From positions 128,001 to 192,000 of the IMG/VR virus record IMGVR_UViG_3300020471_000006: a DNA stretch of 64,000 nucleotides; one strand, 5' to 3'. Positions 1-9,358 of the stretch are shown in pieces. Under the pieces are notes generated by a model. That model was given only the letters and a program-made list of their open reading frames with translations, ran no database searches and was not told the DNA's origin. Numbering within the stretch: position 1 is the stretch's first letter; every line of letters starts with the position of its first letter. Position numbers and translations under genes: made by a program. The DNA comes from a virus. Lineage: Duplodnaviria > Caudoviricetes.

Positions 1-3000
1 ACCAAACCGAAATGGATTGGATTCGTCAGGAATCTTGTTACTGGTACTCTTGCAGAGAGAACTACTGTCACTGAGATTGGATCTGGTGTACTATTCAACT
101 TCTCTAGAGCAGACGAGGCATTTACCTTTACCTATGAAGGTTCTGGTAATCTATACAAAATTGGTGGTGGTGAAGAAAGTGTCACTACAGACTACGTTGG
201 TACTGGTACTCTCGCTCAACTTCAATCTAACGTTAAGGTCAACTTCGTACCTAACTGGAGAGGTTCTGGTGTTGTTGATGTCACAGGTGAAGTCTCCAAC
301 GTTAAGAGATCATTTGGTGAGCAACCATTTGGTGTCATTCCAGTCTTCACTGGAGATGCATATGCTGAGAGAGTTACTTGGGATTACAACGATAGTTCTA
401 TCTTACCATTTGGTTATGAAGACTTCGGTCCATTACCAGGAACTGCTACTGTCGAGGAGATCAATACAAATACGATCCTCTCAGGTACATCTACAGGATC
501 TGTTGTAAGAATCAATGTTGGTGTTGTTGCGGTAGTAGATCCAGACTACACAATCTCACTTGTATCTAACTTCACACCAGGTGCAACCTTTGATTATGGT
601 CTGGTTTCTGAAGGGTTCAATGGACCTATTGATTGGGGATATATTGCCCAGACAATCTGGAATTATCCTTTTGGTGGTTTCCAATATACCAGCAATACAC
701 ATACATCACAAACCAAAGGATTTGTTGCAGAGAAGACATTCGATGCATCGATCAAGATTCGTTCTGCAACGTGGGTACGTATTAACCCACAGTGGGAAGG
801 ATTTATTCCGATTGATGTTACTGGTGCTGCTACTTACAGTGTTACTAGACCATACACAGGTGAAGGTCGTGCATTCAGTATTGTATACGCTGAAGCTTCA
901 CGTGTATTTGATTACGTTGGTGAAGGTCAGATCTACAAGATTGGTGGTGCAGTTGAATCTGTATCCTTCAACCCAGATGAGAAACAGGCTCTATTCCCAA
1001 TCAGGGGTGTTGCTGACGTTAGATTCGCACCTAACTGGAATGCCTTTGGTACTCTATGGGCATCTTATGGAACAGCAGAACCTGTACTTAGATCCTTTGC
1101 TTATGAAGGCACAGGTGTTCTACCTACTCTTGTTGGTACAGAGAATAGAAGAACTTACTCTTACAATGATTCTTCTGAGAATCTATATCAGTACAGAGAT
1201 TATGCAAGTCTACCTGGTGTCGGTACTATCACCGAGATCACACCAAGTCAGAGTATCTCTGGTACATCACCAACTTCTATTATCAGAATTGGTCTCAATG
1301 GTGTTGTTGCAAACATACCTCTTGGTCAGACATACGAGATCGATCCTTGGCTCACCACTGGAGCAACAACAGTCCACGACTGTGGATTTATCACCGATCC
1401 TGGTGCAACGGTAAGAGAGGATTATGGATTCACATCCACAATCAGTTCTATCAGAACAAAAGTTTCCGAATACCCATTTGGAAAACTTGTCAGTTTTGTT
1501 TCTCTATCAGCACCTTCACAGACCAAGATCTTCATATCGGATCCGATTCCTTGGGAACATGCGATCAAGATTCGTTCCGATGCAGCAGTTCGTGTACCAC
1601 CTCAGTGGGTTACCAACGATCCAACACTTTGGACTTGGAGTGGTGCAGCAGAATGTACAGTATCTGTTCCTCCAACAACACCACCATTATTCAAGTTTGC
1701 TGGTGGTTACACAGATCTCAAGTTCATCACAGCAGAAGAAGGTTCTGCTCATATGGAACTATCTGGTACTTGTCAAGAGGCAGTTGTATCAGACAACTAC
1801 AGATTCGTTACTATCGACGTTTCTGGAAACGCAGCAGAGAACTTCAGTCTCCACTTCCATGGATCTGGAAATCTATATTCTATTGGTCGCAGTGCAGAAG
1901 CGATTACAATCGACATACCTGCATTCCAAGCAGATCTTACATTTGGTGGATTCGGAAGTCAGAGATTTACTGTTGCAGAACAGTTTACTGTCGATATCGA
2001 TCTTTCTGGTACTGCAATCGAAAGACAGACAGACGATTGGGTTGGTCAATCTCATACAGAGATATTCAACGTTTCTGTTGTACCACTTATTACGAAGCAT
2101 TGGACTGGCGAAGGTCGGATCTTCAACTTCAGTGGTGCAGTCGAAGCGGTTACATTCAACCCACTCGAACTTGGAGCACTATTCGACTTTACAGGTCGTC
2201 TCGACGAGAGTCGTGCAATTGCTATTGCTGGTCTGGTTCACACAGAAGTACGTGGAACAGCAAGTCCTGCAAAACTTACATTCGCAGAGCAACTATTTGG
2301 TCGTACAGAAGTATACGGTCAAGCAGATCTTCTCAGGACACACGCTTACACAGGCGATGGTCAGGTCTTCTCTGTTGGTGGTGCAGCAGAATCTATTACT
2401 CTCAAACTTCCAGAGTTTACAGCAGACGCAGTTCTCAAGGGTGCTGTCAAACAGAGCTTCACCTTTGGTGGTATTATTGGATCTGGTGTCTTCACAGTCT
2501 TTGGAGAGATTGCAGATCCACTACTTACATTCGCAGAACAACCACTCGGAGACATCTACGTCAGTGGTATTGCAGATGTTGTCAACGTCGATATTCACTT
2601 TGGTGTTGGTGGACTGTTCTCTATTGGTGCAGCAGACGAAGCAATCACAGTCAAGATACCTGCATTCACAGCAGATATCCAGTTTGGTACAGAGTTTGCA
2701 GATATTCGTGCCACATACAGAGAGATTGGTCAAGCAGAAATTCTCTTCAGTGGAGAAGTTTCAGAACCAATCCTCACATTTGCAGAGCAACCAAGAATCG
2801 AAGTCGATATATTTGGTGCTTCTACATCTTCCAGATCCCACGTATGGGTTGGCGAAGGTCGTATATTTGCTATCAGTGGTGCAGCAGAGAGTGTCACATT
2901 TGTCTTGCCAGAATTCCAGGCAGACATGGTGTTCAAAGGGTTTGGTTCATTCAAACAAACCTTCAGCGAAAGATTCACAATCGAATCCAAACTGTCTGGT

Positions 3001-4344
3001 GCAGCAAGTATCAAGTACATTCCAAACTGGATTGGTTCTGGTACTGCAACAGTCGATGTTACATCTACATTCTCTCGTACCAAAATCTTTATTGGAGAAG
3101 GACGCATCTTCAATATCAGTGGTGCATCCGAAAGTGTTACCTTCAATCCAGAAGAGAGACAGTTACTATTCTCTATTGGTGGCACAAGGGCAACAGAAAA
3201 TGTTGTATGGAGTCCAGACGAAGTACCAGTATTCGTCGATATTACTGGAAAGGCATTCGAGAGATTCACACCAAACAATATTGGTTCTGGTACTATCTAC
3301 GTCGATGTCGATACATCCGAACGTATTACAAAGGACTTTGTTGGAGAAGGACGTATCTTCAACATCAGTGGTGCTTCAGAGAGTTTCACTGTCAACCCAG
3401 ACGAGACTACTGCACTATTCTCTATTGGTGGTGTTTCAAGTCAGGTTGTTGTCAGAAGAGAGATTGTATTTGGTACACTCTTTGCATTCTCTGGTGCTTC
3501 AGAAAGTGTTGGAGTCGCACCACTTGCAGACGGTCTCTTTACATTCAAGGGTCGTGCAGAGGAAGCAACAACATACGCAGAAGTTGGATTCGGAGATCTA
3601 TTCAACTTTGTTAGCAGTATTGAGCGTCGCACATTTGACTGGACTTCTCAAATCGATCTTGGTGTTTCTGGTATTGCAGACGAGAAACATACAGAAGCAT
3701 ACTCAGGATTTGGAAATCTATACAACTTCTCTGGTGCAGCAGAGACAATTACATTCTCTCCAGAACTTTATGGAGTTGTACATGTATTTGGTGTTGCCGA
3801 TACTCCAAGAACAAGAGTTACAGTTGGAACTGGATCATTCTTCACATGGAACAATGCATCCGAATCCAGAACAATTGCAGTCGAGAATGTTGCAATCTTC
3901 GACTTCTTGGGTGTTGCAAGACAGGCAGTTGTCAGAAACATTGTTACAGATGTCACTGTCGAGGTCAGAGGATCAGGTGCAGAATCCTTTACAAGGAAAG
4001 GATATGTTGGAGAAGGTTCCGCACAATTCTCTGGAGAATCTACTTCCAGTATCACAAGGATCGAAGAGGGTACAGGAAGAATCGATGTCTTCGAAGAGGA
4101 CAATATTCCTCTTATCGTCAAGACATTTACTGGTTCAGGTCGCATACCTTCTGTCTCAAATGCAGGAGTCCTCCGTACCTTCAGTTACGATGGACATTGC
4201 CCAATTGAGATTGATATTACAACCAAGGTTATTGCACCTTATCAGAGATTTGTATCTGAAGGTGGAGTTATTCTACATGTTGGTGATGCTGAGACAAGAC
4301 GCATACAAGTTGCACCACCAAGATCTTATGGATGGATCATATAA
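1..4344 (+). CDS. Giant repetitive virion structural protein, C-terminal 1447 aa only (5' end lies outside the window)
   Basis: Frame 1 is open from base 1 (TKPKWIGFVRNLVTG...) to TAA at 4342-4344. The ORF track starts it only at the first Met (1753). Gly/Thr/Ser/Val/Phe-rich with recurring GEGRIFNISGAxESVTFNP repeats; upstream of fibre genes. Confidence 0.85.
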   Translation, partial: TKPKWIGFVRNLVTGTLAERTTVTEIGSGVLFNFSRADEAFTFTYEGSGNLYKIGGGEESVTTDYVGTGTLAQLQSNVKVNFVPNWRGSGVVDVTGEVSNVKRSFGEQPFGVIPVFTGDAYAERVTWDYNDSSILPFGYEDFGPLPGTATVEEINTNTILSGTSTGSVVRINVGVVAVVDPDYTISLVSNFTPGATFDYGLVSEGFNGPIDWGYIAQTIWNYPFGGFQYTSNTHTSQTKGFVAEKTFDASIKIRSATWVRINPQWEGFIPIDVTGAATYSVTRPYTGEGRAFSIVYAEASRVFDYVGEGQIYKIGGAVESVSFNPDEKQALFPIRGVADVRFAPNWNAFGTLWASYGTAEPVLRSFAYEGTGVLPTLVGTENRRTYSYNDSSENLYQYRDYASLPGVGTITEITPSQSISGTSPTSIIRIGLNGVVANIPLGQTYEIDPWLTTGATTVHDCGFITDPGATVREDYGFTSTISSIRTKVSEYPFGKLVSFVSLSAPSQTKIFISDPIPWEHAIKIRSDAAVRVPPQWVTNDPTLWTWSGAAECTVSVPPTTPPLFKFAGGYTDLKFITAEEGSAHMELSGTCQEAVVSDNYRFVTIDVSGNAAENFSLHFHGSGNLYSIGRSAEAITIDIPAFQADLTFGGFGSQRFTVAEQFTVDIDLSGTAIERQTDDWVGQSHTEIFNVSVVPLITKHWTGEGRIFNFSGAVEAVTFNPLELGALFDFTGRLDESRAIAIAGLVHTEVRGTASPAKLTFAEQLFGRTEVYGQADLLRTHAYTGDGQVFSVGGAAESITLKLPEFTADAVLKGAVKQSFTFGGIIGSGVFTVFGEIADPLLTFAEQPLGDIYVSGIADVVNVDIHFGVGGLFSIGAADEAITVKIPAFTADIQFGTEFADIRATYREIGQAEILFSGEVSEPILTFAEQPRIEVDIFGASTSSRSHVWVGEGRIFAISGAAESVTFVLPEFQADMVFKGFGSFKQTFSERFTIESKLSGAASIKYIPNWIGSGTATVDVTSTFSRTKIFIGEGRIFNISGASESVTFNPEERQLLFSIGGTRATENVVWSPDEVPVFVDITGKAFERFTPNNIGSGTIYVDVDTSERITKDFVGEGRIFNISGASESFTVNPDETTALFSIGGVSSQVVVRREIVFGTLFAFSGASESVGVAPLADGLFTFKGRAEEATTYAEVGFGDLFNFVSSIERRTFDWTSQIDLGVSGIADEKHTEAYSGFGNLYNFSGAAETITFSPELYGVVHVFGVADTPRTRVTVGTGSFFTWNNASESRTIAVENVAIFDFLGVARQAVVRNIVTDVTVEVRGSGAESFTRKGYVGEGSAQFSGESTSSITRIEEGTGRIDVFEEDNIPLIVKTFTGSGRIPSVSNAGVLRTFSYDGHCPIEIDITTKVIAPYQRFVSEGGVILHVGDAETRRIQVAPPRSYGWII
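856..4017 (+). repeat. Degenerate internal protein repeats of the giant structural protein (core xxGEGR/QIFxxSGAxESxTF)
   Basis: Copies: YTGEGRAF (~853), YVGEGQIYKIGGAVESVSFNP (~913), WTGEGRIFNFSGAVEAVTFNP (~2101), WVGEGRIFAISGAAESVTF (~2845), FIGEGRIFNISGASESVTFNP (~3088), FVGEGRIFNISGASESFTVNP (~3337), YVGEG (~4003). Confidence 0.8.
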
Positions 4345-4345
4345 G

Positions 4346-4363
4346 ATAAATATAACATAAATA
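4346..4363 (+). promoter_or_regulatory. Two tandem T4-type late promoter cores (ATAAATA)
   Basis: ATAAATA at 4346-4352 and 4357-4363, intergenic, ~25 nt before ATG 4387. Confidence 0.65.
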
Positions 4364-4386
4364 TACTTGGTATCGAATAATCACTG

Positions 4387-4848
4387 ATGACAACTCAGGT
4401 TCAATTCCGAAGAGGTACTACAGCTGAGCATGCTCTCTTCACTGGGGCGCAGGGTGAACTGACGATTGATACTGACAAGAACATGGCCGTCATTCATGAC
4501 GGAACCACTACTGGTGGATTTGACGTTTTTAGGGCTAGATGGGAATATATCAATTCAAATCAAACTCTTGGAACAAGCCTTCGTTATTTGGTGGACTCTT
4601 CAAATGGTCCAATATCGTTAACCCTTCCGCTTTACAATAATCAATTAGTTCCCAAATCTGGGGATGTAATAGAGTTTATTGACGTAAAGTTTAGTTGGGA
4701 TATAAATAATGTTACTCTGACGGACCCTATCGGACGACAATTCCAGAATACATTTGGAGTTATATCATCACCTCTGGTGTTTGATGTCAAAGGAGCAAGT
4801 GTCCAACTTATTTGGGAAGGAGTTTACTGGAGGGTAATAGTCCAATGA
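4387..4848 (+). CDS. Tail-fibre-associated protein (Mtd/hyaluronidase-type N-terminal motif plus gp34-like domain)
   Basis: QVQFRRGTTAEHALFTGAQGELTIDTD...VIHDG motif; C-terminal VDSSNGPISLTLP...GDVIEFID domain resembles long-tail-fibre proximal repeats. Confidence 0.65.
   Translation: MTTQVQFRRGTTAEHALFTGAQGELTIDTDKNMAVIHDGTTTGGFDVFRARWEYINSNQTLGTSLRYLVDSSNGPISLTLPLYNNQLVPKSGDVIEFIDVKFSWDINNVTLTDPIGRQFQNTFGVISSPLVFDVKGASVQLIWEGVYWRVIVQ
4701..4708 (+). promoter_or_regulatory. Possible internal late promoter TATAAATA
   Basis: Exact T4 late consensus inside the 4387 CDS, ~140 nt before the next gene. Confidence 0.4.
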
Positions 4849-5263: not shown

Positions 5264-8200
5264 ATGGCAGATTTTAGACTTGGCAGACTAAAATTTAACT
5301 GGAGAGGTGACTGGGCGGCTGGAACCGCTTATGTCATTGATGACATTGTTAAATTTGGTGCTAACACTTACGTAGCTATCGCTAACCACACATCGGTTTC
5401 GAGTGCTGCACAATGGTATGCAACTGATGCAGGTAGTTGGCAACTTCATACAGAGGGTATCTACAATACAGGTGATTGGGCTGCAGCTACTTTCTATAAG
5501 TTAAACGATATCGCAAAATACGGTAACGTACTTTATAGAACTACTACACCACACTTATCTACTAGTACTTTTGACAGTGCTAAGTTTGCTGCCTACTTAG
5601 ACGGTCTTAAGTTCGAAGATACTTGGGATTCAGCAACTGAATATCAAAAAGGTGATATCGTAACATATGGTGGTTATTCATATGTTGCTTTAACAACTAG
5701 TATTGCTATTCAACCAAATAACGGTATTGGTAACCAGTGGGATATCCTAACAACTGGTTTCAAAGTTGTTGGTAACTGGGATTCTACTACAACATACAAA
5801 CCAGGCGACGTTGTACTCTTAGGTGGTAACTCATACGTTTCTAAGACAACAAACATTAATAAGTCTCCTGATACAAACACTTCTGATTGGGACTTCGTTG
5901 TTGGTGGATTTACATGGAAGGGAACTTGGGATGTAGGTACTGTCTACTATCCAGGTGATGCTGTTAACAGAAATAGTAACTCCTATATTTGTGTAGCTCA
6001 GTCAACAGGTAATGCACCTGAAACAGATACTCTTGGTACATATTGGAATTCACTTGCTGAAGGAGCGTCTGCCAACGTTCTAACAACATCTGGTGATATT
6101 CTTTATCAAGCTGGAGCTGGTCCTGCTAGATTAGCAATTGGAACTGAGAATAAAGTTCTTACTGTTGATGCTTCTGGTTATCCATCATGGAAAGAGAGTC
6201 ACGTTACACACAAAGTTTACTACGTTACTCCAGAAGGTAAAGATACCAATCCAGGTAACAGTATTACAACAGCATGGAGAACAGTTCGTCACGCTGTAGA
6301 TAATGTAACTGGTCCTGCAACAATTTACGTTAAAGCAGGTACATATAACGAAATCCTTCCAATGAGGGTTCCTGAAGGTGTAGGTATCGTTGGTGATAAC
6401 CTAAGAACCTCAAGGATTCAAGCAAGAGCTGGTGAACCTTCAAGTGTTGTTAAACTTTCACTTGCACAAGTACCTGATGCTCAGTATAGAGTTCTTGGTT
6501 CTACTATCACATCTGGTGATGGAGCAAAGACTGGTGAAGTTATTGATGTTAGAGGAGGAGGTGGAGAGATCTATGTCCAAACTGATGGATTTGAAAATAA
6601 CAAAACTGCTGACGCATACAACCTATTAACATCTAACACACAGTTCCTTGTTAAGGAAACTCTTGCACAAGCTGCTAACGGTGGTGTTGCTATTACTAGC
6701 CCTCCAGGAGGAGATGCTTCTGTATTCGAAAGTAAACTTGCTGGTTTGGTTCAGGATATCACTGCTAACTTAGGTTATGGTGGTAACGACCGTGTTTATG
6801 ACACAGTTGATGATTGGATTACTACTAACTATTGGAATGGTAACGAAGCAGAAGTTGTTTCTATCTTAGCATACTTGATTCCTCTTGCAAAAGATGTTAT
6901 CAATAACACAACAATTACTGTTATTGGTACTCATGGATTAGGTCAGGTTAAGAACGATACTATTACAGACATTAGTACTGTAAGTGGAAACGCAACTTGT
7001 GTTGTTCAGGATGCTGCTATTACAACATTAGTTGGAGTTGCAACAACTGGATTGGGTTCAGGACTTGGAAGTGTTACTAGAGATGCTAACCAAAACCTCT
7101 GGACAGTTTCAGACACATATGAAGCAGGTGCTACAGATATCGGTATTACTAGTGTAACACCTATCAACAACGAAAACTTAACTATGTGGATGCTAGGAAG
7201 CACCACTATGCTTAAGGACATGGTTATGGACGGAATGGTTGGATTCGTTCCTTCAAATTCTGATCCTAAAGATCTTAACACTGCTACAATCCAAGGTGTT
7301 TATGTACGTCTAGATCCTAACTCACCAATTAAGAGATCACCTTATGTCTCTAACTGTTCTTGCTTCGGTGCAACAGGTATTGGTGCTGTTATTGACGGTG
7401 ATGTTCACGCTAAGTGGGATAATACTGCAAACTTTACACCAACTGATGCTACATACAATCCTTCTACTGGAGATTTAGATCTTGAACTTGGTGCTGGTCA
7501 TGGATTGACTTCTGGATCAAGTATTACATTAGCACAAGCATCTATTACATTTACTTGTACTAAGAACGGTAATGCATCTAACCATGCATATCCTCGTGTT
7601 ACTGACCCTGCGTTTGGTAAGGAACTTGTAATTACAAGTCATAGTGATACAAACATTGTAGTTAATGTTGGTGTTGCTGCTCCTGCTGATCAGTATGGAC
7701 ATACATTTGTAAGTGCTGCTACTAACGCTGTTGTATTTGATAACAGATCAAACAAAACAATGGTGTTTGACTCTTGGACACAAATCCACGAAGATGGTGG
7801 AGTTGGTTTCTGGTGTACAAACAAGGCTGGTGCTGAGATTGTATCTTGCTTTACTTACTACTGTCACATCTCATACTCTTCTACTAGAGGTGGAAGAATC
7901 AGATCTCTTGCTGGTAACTCATCATGGGGAACATACGGTATTGTATCTTCTGGATTCGATACTAATGAAACAACTCTTGATGGTACTATCGATGGTCTAT
8001 CTCTTGAATATGATGAAGCAACAATCGTTGCTGGAGCACAGGATTCAATTTGGTTGAATGAAGAAAGAGTTGTTGGATTAACATCTGGTGCTGTTGGAGA
8101 AATTATCTCTGTACAGGCTGGTGTATCTAAGATACTCTTCAGACCATTTAAAGGAAACTTTGTACAAGGTGAAACTATAGATGGTCAAACTTCTGGAGTA

Positions 8201-9358
8201 CAAGGTTCTCTACTTAGCAACGCTGACTACTTGGGTGGACAAAACGGATTCGTTCTTGCCTTAACTGGTAGAACATCTGCTCCTGTTCCAGGTGGTTCAG
8301 TTGAATTTGTTACTGGTGCTGGTGGTGCTGGAGAAGAACCATTCACATTTGTTATCGCTAACTCATCATACACTGCTCCTACTGGAAGAGGTAACTTAAC
8401 TGTTACTAGAGGACTGCTAGGTAGTTCTGCTGCTATACATCAAGGTTTGGAATTAATTACCAGATACCAGTATGGTGGTGCTAGTAACTTGAGTTCTGCT
8501 GTTAACAATACAACAGAAACTACAATTTATGTTAACTCCATTTCAGGATTCTCAATTGGAGCATACTGTATTGTAGACGATGAAATGATGGCAATTACTT
8601 CATTCCCAACAGCAACATCTCTTGAAGTTACTCGTGGACAAGAAGGTACAAATGCTGCTACTCACACATCAGGTACTTCAGTACGTGCTATCGAAATTAA
8701 GTCTGTTGATCAAACAGATACTTTAAGAGATCTCACTGCTGCCAGTACTGTTATTCGCATTACTGATGCTTCTGGATTCAACAATAATGATTACATAAAA
8801 ATCAATAGTGAATTCATGCAGATTACAAATGCACAAACAGATACAACTGGTACTGCATTAGTTGTTCTTGCTGCTGAGAAACCCACAAGAACATTTGACG
8901 GACAAAACTACAAGATCAGATATGGTTATAGTCAAGTTCGTCTAACTGGTCATGACTTCCTAGACTTAGGTACAGGAAACAAACTTCAAACTAACTGGCC
9001 TGGAGATCCATTAGTGGATCCAGCACCAGGTAATGAAGTTACTGAGGACTTCCCAGGACGTGTATTCTTTGTATCAACAGACCAAGATGGTAACTTCACT
9101 GTTGGACGTTACTTCAAGGTCAACCAGGCAACTGGTTCAACTACATTGAACGCATCATCCTTTGACCTATCTGGTCTATCATCCTTGAGATTGGGTTCTA
9201 TTGGTGCTCAGTTGGGTGAAAGTATCACAGAATTCTCTTCTGATGTTACACTTTCTGCTAACTCAAACCAAAAAGTTCCTACACAACGTGCTGTTAAGAC
9301 ATACATTGACGACAACCGCACAACTAAAGGATACGTCTTCTGGGCAGGGTCAGTTTGA
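5264..9358 (+). CDS. Tail fibre/spike-like protein with N-terminal CBM5/12-like repeats and a pectin-lyase-like beta-helix
   Basis: 1364 aa with AAGGA SD. Five W-x5-Y-x2-(G/N/D)D-(I/V/A)(V/A) repeats; YYVTPEGKD...AWRTVRHAV...IYVKAGTYNE beta-helix entry motif. Confidence 0.75.
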   Translation: MADFRLGRLKFNWRGDWAAGTAYVIDDIVKFGANTYVAIANHTSVSSAAQWYATDAGSWQLHTEGIYNTGDWAAATFYKLNDIAKYGNVLYRTTTPHLSTSTFDSAKFAAYLDGLKFEDTWDSATEYQKGDIVTYGGYSYVALTTSIAIQPNNGIGNQWDILTTGFKVVGNWDSTTTYKPGDVVLLGGNSYVSKTTNINKSPDTNTSDWDFVVGGFTWKGTWDVGTVYYPGDAVNRNSNSYICVAQSTGNAPETDTLGTYWNSLAEGASANVLTTSGDILYQAGAGPARLAIGTENKVLTVDASGYPSWKESHVTHKVYYVTPEGKDTNPGNSITTAWRTVRHAVDNVTGPATIYVKAGTYNEILPMRVPEGVGIVGDNLRTSRIQARAGEPSSVVKLSLAQVPDAQYRVLGSTITSGDGAKTGEVIDVRGGGGEIYVQTDGFENNKTADAYNLLTSNTQFLVKETLAQAANGGVAITSPPGGDASVFESKLAGLVQDITANLGYGGNDRVYDTVDDWITTNYWNGNEAEVVSILAYLIPLAKDVINNTTITVIGTHGLGQVKNDTITDISTVSGNATCVVQDAAITTLVGVATTGLGSGLGSVTRDANQNLWTVSDTYEAGATDIGITSVTPINNENLTMWMLGSTTMLKDMVMDGMVGFVPSNSDPKDLNTATIQGVYVRLDPNSPIKRSPYVSNCSCFGATGIGAVIDGDVHAKWDNTANFTPTDATYNPSTGDLDLELGAGHGLTSGSSITLAQASITFTCTKNGNASNHAYPRVTDPAFGKELVITSHSDTNIVVNVGVAAPADQYGHTFVSAATNAVVFDNRSNKTMVFDSWTQIHEDGGVGFWCTNKAGAEIVSCFTYYCHISYSSTRGGRIRSLAGNSSWGTYGIVSSGFDTNETTLDGTIDGLSLEYDEATIVAGAQDSIWLNEERVVGLTSGAVGEIISVQAGVSKILFRPFKGNFVQGETIDGQTSGVQGSLLSNADYLGGQNGFVLALTGRTSAPVPGGSVEFVTGAGGAGEEPFTFVIANSSYTAPTGRGNLTVTRGLLGSSAAIHQGLELITRYQYGGASNLSSAVNNTTETTIYVNSISGFSIGAYCIVDDEMMAITSFPTATSLEVTRGQEGTNAATHTSGTSVRAIEIKSVDQTDTLRDLTAASTVIRITDASGFNNNDYIKINSEFMQITNAQTDTTGTALVVLAAEKPTRTFDGQNYKIRYGYSQVRLTGHDFLDLGTGNKLQTNWPGDPLVDPAPGNEVTEDFPGRVFFVSTDQDGNFTVGRYFKVNQATGSTTLNASSFDLSGLSSLRLGSIGAQLGESITEFSSDVTLSANSNQKVPTQRAVKTYIDDNRTTKGYVFWAGSV
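5300..6050 (+). repeat. Five CBM5/12-like (chitin-binding type 3-like) repeats
   Basis: WAAGTAYVIDDIVKFG, WAAATFYKLNDIAKYG, WDSATEYQKGDIVTYG, WDSTTTYKPGDVVLLG, WDVGTVYYPGDAVNRN. Confidence 0.7.

Follow-up and report, generated by a model that had tools for sequence, protein, structure and literature searches.

In ambigrammatic narnaviruses, the RdRp gene is spanned on the reverse strand by a stop-free open reading frame (ORF) (DeRisi et al. 2019, PMC6884476; Dudas et al. 2021, PMC8155312; Retallack et al. 2021, PMC8316113). Polymorphism tests point to no conserved protein in this alternative frame, and openness itself is apparently selected. A related state is described here for the giant gene of an uncultured T4-like marine cyanophage (IMG/VR record IMGVR_UViG_3300020471_000006), of whose 202,519-bp genome bases 128001-192000 were analysed (64,000 nucleotides (nt); 'the window', to which positions refer unless stated otherwise). 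The giant gene (genome 126891-132344, window -1109..4344, + strand, frame 1) encodes 1817 amino acids (aa) and is the longest gene of the genome. As in narnaviruses, synonymous choices in a real gene are all that keeps a long alternative frame free of stops. Unlike the narnavirus frame, which is a single extra frame carried by the complementary strand in a 3-kb eukaryotic RNA virus, both sense off-frames (+1 and +2) are purged, along a section of a single gene in a 202-kb double-stranded DNA phage, while the antisense strand is ordinary, and these frames can be reached only by frame loss or by internal initiation on the same mRNA. Of the two marks of an ambigram, openness by synonymous choice without coding constraint is present and a location on the reverse complement is absent. 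A first-pass annotation of the sequence knew of no description of such a pattern; literature searches agree, having found no account of sense-strand, two-frame stop purging in a phage gene, and the ambigrammatic narnaviruses are a clear conceptual precedent. The giant gene extends the known class of stop-purged alternative frames without coding constraint.

Phages have overlapping genes and programmed frameshift products of another kind, for example lambda G/GT and T7 10A/10B. Like overprinted genes, the giant gene carries overlong alternative-frame ORFs inside a structural gene that are conserved among relatives, but it has no conserved start, slippery site or amino-acid constraint in them, and two frames are open over 2.2 kb. 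Hidden off-frame stops are the subject of the ambush hypothesis, reportedly put forward by Seligmann and Pollock in 2004. The hypothesis, which has been refined (PMC5909447), resembles the present case in that off-frame stop density is set by synonymous codon context and the presumed agent is the frameshifted ribosome; however, it predicts enrichment and an early halt of erroneous translation, whereas the giant gene shows near-total depletion, the opposite sign, and off-frame stops at or above the codon-usage expectation were not found in it. For the PE_PGRS genes of Mycobacterium, out-of-frame stop depletion has been proposed as frameshift tolerance, with GC content as the dominant predictor (PMC13328622). 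These surface-protein genes are likewise repeat-rich with few off-frame stops, read there as tolerance of frame loss, but the giant gene differs in a GC content of only 42-46%, in a depletion to 0 stops where codon-preserving shuffles predict 83, and in purifying selection that is shown directly.

All TAA, TAG and TGA triplets on the + strand were listed across the region, and near it they occur only at 1176, 1412, 3612, 3621, 3636 and 4206. This bears out the first-pass annotation, which had reported no stop triplet in 1415-3611 (2197 nt) or 3639-4205 and only TAA 1412 in 1179-1414. The off-frame ORFs of 755 aa (1347-3614) and 978 aa (1424-4360) that it had named are present, the +1 frame does end in the intergenic region, 16 nt beyond the main stop, and the neighbouring fibre gene does hold nine stop triplets in 5281-5400. 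In 2000 synonymous-codon shuffles of 1177-3611, with protein and codon usage kept, 19.1 +/- 2.6 stops were expected in the +1 frame (shuffle minimum 10) and 63.7 +/- 5.1 in the +2 frame (minimum 46). The gene has one and none, respectively, so the control that had been proposed never came near the observed counts. The alternative-frame ORFs are thus longer than a codon-permutation null allows.

The avoidance is limited to the stop set, as had been claimed. In the +2 frame, TGA, TAG and TAA are each absent (33, 16 and 15 expected), while TGG, TGC, TGT, TAC, TAT, CGA, CAA and CAG are at or above expectation. Antisense stops by phase were 22/90/22, with 22/82/22 expected (134 in 2436 nt). The depletion works through codon context: T-ending codons stood ahead of none of the 179 codons starting with GA, AA or AG, as against 47% among other codons, the figure for the N-terminal part being 39%. 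Throughout the stop-free region, NNT codons never precede GA-, AA- or AG-starting codons, and NTA and NTG codons never precede R- or A-starting codons. The contrasting spellings already pointed out for a recurrent Gly-Glu pair, GGT GAA upstream and GGC or GGA GAA within the region, are as reported.

It is also specific to this gene. The longest stop-free run in the 202-kb genome is the one of about 2200 nt found here, the next outside the giant gene being 161 nt. The median ratio of observed to expected off-frame stops was 1.01 across the 65 ORFs with 250 aa or more, and the only outliers were the giant gene and its own off-frame ORFs; a 1364-aa fibre gene showed no comparable depletion. Chance or composition is ruled out by the synonymous shuffles, the trinucleotide tables, this genome-wide control and the GC content. 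Protein composition or domain type can also be dismissed as the cause, because the N-terminal half of the gene, which is not depleted, has a similar composition and homologous repeats in the same frame, yet carries +2 stops at ordinary density. The depletion of off-frame stops is therefore real, specific to the stop set and specific to the gene.

A second codon-context effect was seen. T-runs across codon boundaries are avoided in all genes tested, with T|TT found twice in the stop-free region (24 expected) and ten times in the fibre gene (window 5264-9355; 37 expected); runs of at least four T number one (16.5 expected). This was considered as a mark of the stop-free region and rejected, being a genome-wide codon-context rule separate from stop avoidance.

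The extents of the open frames are given in Table 1. The first-pass annotation had placed the start of the region at 1179, which holds for the +2 frame (35 stops in 1-1176, 38 expected) but not for the +1 frame, already depleted upstream (3 stops, 11 expected). Only four +1 stops (506, 533, 536 and 1412) lie in the window part of the gene; the last 136 nt before the main stop (4206-4341) contain five stops in +2 and none in +1. In the N-terminal part, +1 stops cluster every 250 codons or so, at codons 277-293 and 539-549 (the latter being window 506-538), and in the homolog from phage S-CAM1 at codons 311-322, 558-559 and 804. These clusters sit in the same conserved motif (…SGTSTGSVV.I…) of each repeated module of about 250 aa, so that N-terminal +1 stops were evidently inherited with module duplication.

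Table 1. Open off-frame blocks of the giant gene and adjoining features (window positions).
Feature	Position	Strand	Basis or content
Block A, +2 (= -1) frame	1179..3611	+	811 stop-free codons; about 64 stops expected
Interruption	3612..3638	+	Three +2-frame stops (3612, 3621, 3636) in 27 nt; at least one in every close relative
Block B, +2 frame	3639..4205	+	189 stop-free codons
Terminal zone	4206..4292	+	+2 stops back to ordinary density: 4206, 4212, 4257, 4284, 4290
Open +1 frame	1415..4360	+	976 stop-free codons (982 with stop and five codons past main stop)
Last +1 stop and ATG	1412..1426	+	TAA 1412-1414 (from GTA AGA), Shine-Dalgarno (SD)-like GAGAGG 1415-1420, +1-frame ATG 1424-1426
Giant gene, window part	1..4344	+	ORF, start codon and ribosome-binding site, PHROG 11522, homologs, kept gene order
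Intergenic region, T4-type late-promoter-like ATAAATA boxes	4345..4386	+	Directly after giant-gene stop
Downstream 153-aa tail protein	4387..4848	+	PHROG 9648; Mtd_N PF18454 in relatives; ordinary off-frame stop density

Each of the 30 homologous genes examined showed the depletion, at protein identities as low as 26-30%. They include those of the Synechococcus phages S-CAM1 and S-CAM3, which are isolates on WH7803-type Synechococcus hosts, 14 close relatives from IMG/VR (85-99% identity), two distant ones (26-27%) and six further family members fetched from at least 213 metagenomic proteins; members other than the two isolates are cited by L numbers where needed. The homologs of S-CAM1 and S-CAM3, at about 30% protein identity, show the same depletion in their C-terminal halves, while in the genes neighbouring them the observed/expected ratio is about 1; the comparison with divergent homologs, on which the earlier claim had been made to depend, thus came out in its favour. 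Over the last 900 codons of 11 divergent members, the +1 frame has 0-6 stops in every case, with 12-30 expected. Their +2 frame ranges from nearly clean (3/62, 8/71, 8/60 and 10/61) to weakly depleted (50/75 and 69/91), cleaner +2 frames tending towards higher-GC genes.

Block sizes differ greatly between family members. In the 11 divergent homologs, the +2 frame is interrupted by 1 to about 15 stops, or by wider zones of normal density, at roughly similar places that are not strictly homologous alignment columns. Across the family, the interruption is a single stop in S-CAM1, three stops in nine codons in the window gene, six to eight in about 47 codons in S-CAM3 and L018, and wide zones of normal stop density in L020, L021 and L024. 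In all members, +2 stops return in the last 45-80 codons. The boundaries of the +1 and +2 frames differ in every genome, and stretches with normal or even dense +2 stops lack +1 stops at 3612-3638 and 4206-4341 as well as in the interruptions of S-CAM3, L018 and L022. The constraint is frame-specific and conserved across a family diverged to 26-30% identity.

Frame specificity bears on whether the cause need be translation at all. A strand-specific nuclease or binding factor that recognizes UAA, UAG and UGA (or the DNA triplets), or else composition or chance, would account for an avoidance that is strand-specific and total for three triplets, and the T4-type late promoter (TATAAATA) and sigma-70 hexamers do contain TAA or TGA. 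However, one off-frame admits the very triplets that are purged from the other (in 1-1176 and in the stretches just named), which a frame-blind nuclease or binding factor cannot explain and a ribosome can; the avoided set is exactly the stop set, with TGG, TAC and TAT enriched, and composition fails against the shuffles at a GC of 42-46%. A cause outside translation is hardly credible, and the stop-triplet-directed nuclease suggested in the first-pass annotation is disfavoured by the different, frame-specific boundaries of the two off-frames.

Selection against off-frame stops is acting now. Among 12 close relatives, 242 synonymous variants were found in block A, where 15.6% of possible synonymous single-base changes would create an off-frame stop; only two variants do so, as against about 38 expected. 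Both belong to L013 (codons 829 and 859) and lie within 100 codons of the 5' edge, and one further stop-creating variant, shared by L011 and L012, lies just past the interruption. Frame-aware, stop-directed purifying selection is thus still at work in close relatives. The earlier proposal that avoidance through codon context points to selection at the level of translation is supported by the shuffles, by the divergent homologs and by this purifying selection. Off-frame stops have usually been held to be neutral or weakly selected upward; in the giant-gene family strong selection in the opposite direction is ongoing. It affects a single gene, and only a part of it, where the GC content is ordinary.

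One reason for keeping a frame open would be that its product is needed. The off-frames may be expressed on purpose, as overlapping ORFs or as programmed +1/-1 frameshift fusions with C-termini of up to about 980 and 810 residues and a function tolerant of almost any sequence. The blocks look like ORFs with defined ends that recur family-wide, the +1 frame invariably ends a little beyond the main stop, and its last stop is followed by GAGAGG-N3-ATG, which resembles the giant gene's own ribosome-binding site (GGAGGG ahead of the ATG). The off-frame ORFs also pass a test of the ORF-length permutation kind, which is an accepted flag for overlapping genes (PMC6188560). Against this stands the pattern of substitution. 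Any change that is synonymous in the main frame alters the amino acid in +1, and nearly always in +2 as well. Yet synonymous divergence, at about 0.167 for the stop-free region as against about 0.195 for the N-terminal half, gives a ratio of about 0.86, where forbidding the stop-creating mutations alone predicts 0.84. There is therefore no detectable constraint on off-frame amino acids beyond stop avoidance, and the reduced synonymous rate that purifying selection on an alternative-frame protein would leave was not seen in the 12 relatives. In distant homologs, codon identity at conserved residues is only modestly raised and off-frame BLAST scores between homologs lie above a saturated-codon null; conservation of an off-frame protein was rejected here too, as context-dependent stop avoidance explains the modest excess of codon identity.

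The predicted products resemble stop-purged junk. The +2 translation contains 14.5% arginine, 8.7% cysteine, 8.1% tryptophan and 8.3% tyrosine, the +1 translation 18% leucine, 14% serine and 12% glutamine, and neither gave a match in Pfam or PHROG. No conserved start codon with a ribosome-binding site was found for the off-frame ORFs: although TAA 1412 is kept in all 12 relatives, the +1 ATG at 1424 is lost in four of them (TAT to TAC). The +1 frame has many internal start codons. In the +2 blocks there is almost no ATG, GTG or TTG in any homolog, since such codons need main-frame Cys or Trp codons, and the +2 frame can consequently be entered only by frameshift. The evidence says that the off-frames are kept open yet are not protein-coding in the ordinary sense.

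No route into programmed frameshifting was apparent. X_XXY_YYZ heptamers were absent from the stop-free regions of the window gene, S-CAM1, S-CAM3 and L018, including the entry to the open -1 frame, and the stop-free region of the window gene has no homopolymers of five or more. A quadruplet-reading tRNA was considered and rejected, as the genome encodes a single, ordinary tRNA-Thr. Given these results and block sizes that vary so greatly, purposeful expression is unlikely, and the programmed frameshift with functional alternative C-termini offered by the first-pass annotation is disfavoured. A practical consequence for annotation is that ORF-length tests would wrongly call two giant overlapping genes within this one.

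Of the options in the first-pass annotation, keeping slipped ribosomes translating belongs to the class of explanation that survives best, although its benefit is one that we infer. Our tentative preference, held with a little less than even confidence, is for selection at the level of translation, such that ribosomes losing frame do not terminate inside the distal region. Over the distal 1000 codons or so, synonymous choice would be constrained so that neither off-frame holds a stop. The selective agent would be the ribosome and its release factors, which would meet off-frame stops after frame loss, either by a spontaneous +1 or -1 slip or, for the +1 frame, by internal out-of-frame initiation. 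Termination inside the distal repeat region would then cost more than continued elongation, the reverse of ambush logic. Speculatively, truncated chains that keep the N-terminal attachment part may be assembly-competent and act as dominant-negative fibre subunits, and frame-shifted chains with hundreds of junk residues, rich in Arg, Cys, Trp and Tyr or in Leu, Gln and Ser, may be shut out or degraded. A new stop would cost more the longer the open frame that it cuts off, so that mid-block stops would be purged and stops beside an existing one would be nearly neutral, letting clusters nucleate and spread. Such scaling fits the position of the exceptions and of stop clusters at block edges, and it fits the stop-free blocks of lower-GC lineages, which seem worn away from points of nucleation. 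In large phage populations, even small benefits per site could be enough to maintain about 80 sites.

Several points weigh against this preference. Occupancy of the off-frames by ribosomes is a presumption. The lack of canonical slippery heptamers and of homopolymers of at least five, together with the avoidance of T-runs, implies that slippage would be basal and the benefit per site small, so that the argument leans on very large phage populations. The proposal does not account for a sign that is reversed in only this gene family, and it is not evident that a chain with a junk extension would be less poisonous than a truncated one. Because of the +2 interruption, -1-shifted ribosomes from block A still terminate before the end. 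In addition, structural models with predicted local distance difference test (pLDDT) values of 26-31 give no check on the assembly logic.

More broadly, the arrangement may be an 'anti-ambush' layer in which both sense off-frames are kept translatable for up to 1000 codons, so that stray ribosomes are used, in multi-frame products whose function would tolerate any sequence, or made harmless, by junk tails that quarantine faulty subunits; we regard this as possible, with doubt prevailing. If true, viral ambigrams would have here a first sense-strand counterpart, open in three frames, and DNA viruses a first example. The family offers a genetically tractable system for the fate of frame-losing ribosomes and for the toxicity of truncated multimeric virion proteins. 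It also bears on how general selection for openness without coding may be, for which the argument has so far come mainly from narnavirus ambigrams.

Openness could instead serve the message. A ribosome-cover hypothesis has been set out for ambigrammatic narnaviruses (PMC8155312), and in the giant gene out-of-frame ribosomes might stay on a long mRNA and shield its 3' half from RNase E-type decay or from slow-termination collisions. Such a role would be independent of the off-frame sequence and predicts a benefit growing with open length, as observed; the start-rich +1 frame is open in all members, with the start-poor +2 frame variably eroded, and a terminator-like hairpin ahead of this gene, the longest in the genome, suggests that its transcripts are scarce. 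However, main-frame ribosomes already cover the mRNA, and the +2 frame, reachable only by rare slipped ribosomes, is purged without exception across 811 codons. Nothing similar is seen in other long late genes, for example that of the 1364-aa fibre. The late-promoter-like boxes directly after the giant gene, kept in S-CAM1, S-CAM3, L017, L018, L004 and L013, mean that the downstream tail protein gene has its own promoter, and polarity is not at stake. Ribosome cover is accordingly quite improbable as the cause.

A further suggestion of the first-pass annotation was tolerance of indels or of repeat shuffling. Open off-frames would then be a matter of evolvability, letting indels or out-of-register repeat recombination still give full-length host-range proteins. 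The gene does lie among tail and fibre genes, it is fast-evolving (ratio of non-synonymous to synonymous polymorphism, pN/pS, 0.26-0.65), conversion-like patches occur between its 82-aa repeats, and the PE_PGRS genes provide a published precedent (PMC13328622). Yet no frameshifting indel was found among the 12 aligned relatives, which show one in-frame codon indel only, and no indel was found in the DNA and RNA metagenome contigs matching the giant gene. RNA-library contigs cover most of the gene, although the reading frame is not readable from contigs. Alignment at the DNA level gave only +1/-1 gaps, paired within 1-5 codons, and these occur in the stop-free region as well as beyond it; they are probably alignment artefacts. 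Off-frame translations matched no main-frame sequence in the gene, the genome or the 11 divergent homologs; the region thus did not arise from repeats read in more than one frame, and no sign of evolutionary frame switching is seen. Hypermutable tracts, which together with length variants among relatives mark phase-variable or contingency genes, were not seen, and second-order selection would need to hold about 80 sites perfectly. The suggestion of indel or shuffling tolerance thus gained no support, and evolvability is a rather improbable basis for the openness.

Within the stop-free region, synonymous divergence among close relatives falls to 0.02-0.04 at window 3076-3400 (codons 1396-1500 approximately), as against a mean of 0.11. 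There, relatives differ in short patches of clustered substitutions, whose likeness to the neighbouring 82-aa repeat points to gene conversion between repeats. An embedded element behind the dip at codons 1400-1500 was rejected, as near-identical repeats and conversion-like patches explain it better. Short metagenome contigs from two runs join parts of the repeats, skipping 322, 95 and 213 nt and showing some letters replaced (window 2001-2046 and 3116-3177); their sides of 22-36 nt are too short to trust, and they are probably other family members or repeat mis-joins.

In a profile search, the giant protein matched PHROG 11522 (function unknown; E 1.7e-209, residues 522-1447), and nothing informative was found for the main-frame protein in Pfam, a PDB sequence search or a protein atlas. 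Its gene lies in the tail/fibre module, in a kept order of 241 aa, about 465 aa, giant gene, 152-aa Mtd_N tail protein, about 125 aa and tail fibre. Profile match and gene order together make it a member of the PHROG 11522 family, that is, a giant tail-module protein of S-CAM1-like cyanomyoviruses, and this genomic context suggests that the earlier label of 'virion gene' is apt. The distal half of the protein is filled with G-x-G-x-L-F...S-G-A-x-E-S...F-x-P repeats of about 41/82 aa. AlphaFold2 models of two segments (alignments of 46 and 50 sequences) had pLDDT values of 31 and 26 and were unusable, as might be expected of an intertwined multimeric fibre, although such a failure proves nothing. 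Methionine is nearly absent from the protein (2 of the 1447 residues encoded at window 1-4341), and a +1 stop is forced by one amino-acid pair only, Met followed by an A-starting codon.

Scans for Rfam families, promoters and terminators gave nothing relevant. ARAGORN called a single tRNA-Thr(TGT) and a dubious permuted tmRNA overlapping it, outside the window at genome 52551-52943. The Mtd_N domain (PF18454), found in relatives of the downstream tail protein, is the N-terminal domain of the Bordetella phage tropism determinant. About 20 nt 5' of the SD sequence and ATG of the giant gene, a terminator-like hairpin (GGGGATTCAG-TA-CTGGATCCCC, then TTTTTATTTT) lies at window -1155 to -1120 approximately (genome 126845-126880 approximately), and the nearest exact TATAAATA late promoters are 2.6 kb upstream, at window -2635 and -2618. 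The giant gene may thus be expressed only by read-through of the terminator, and hence at low copy number.

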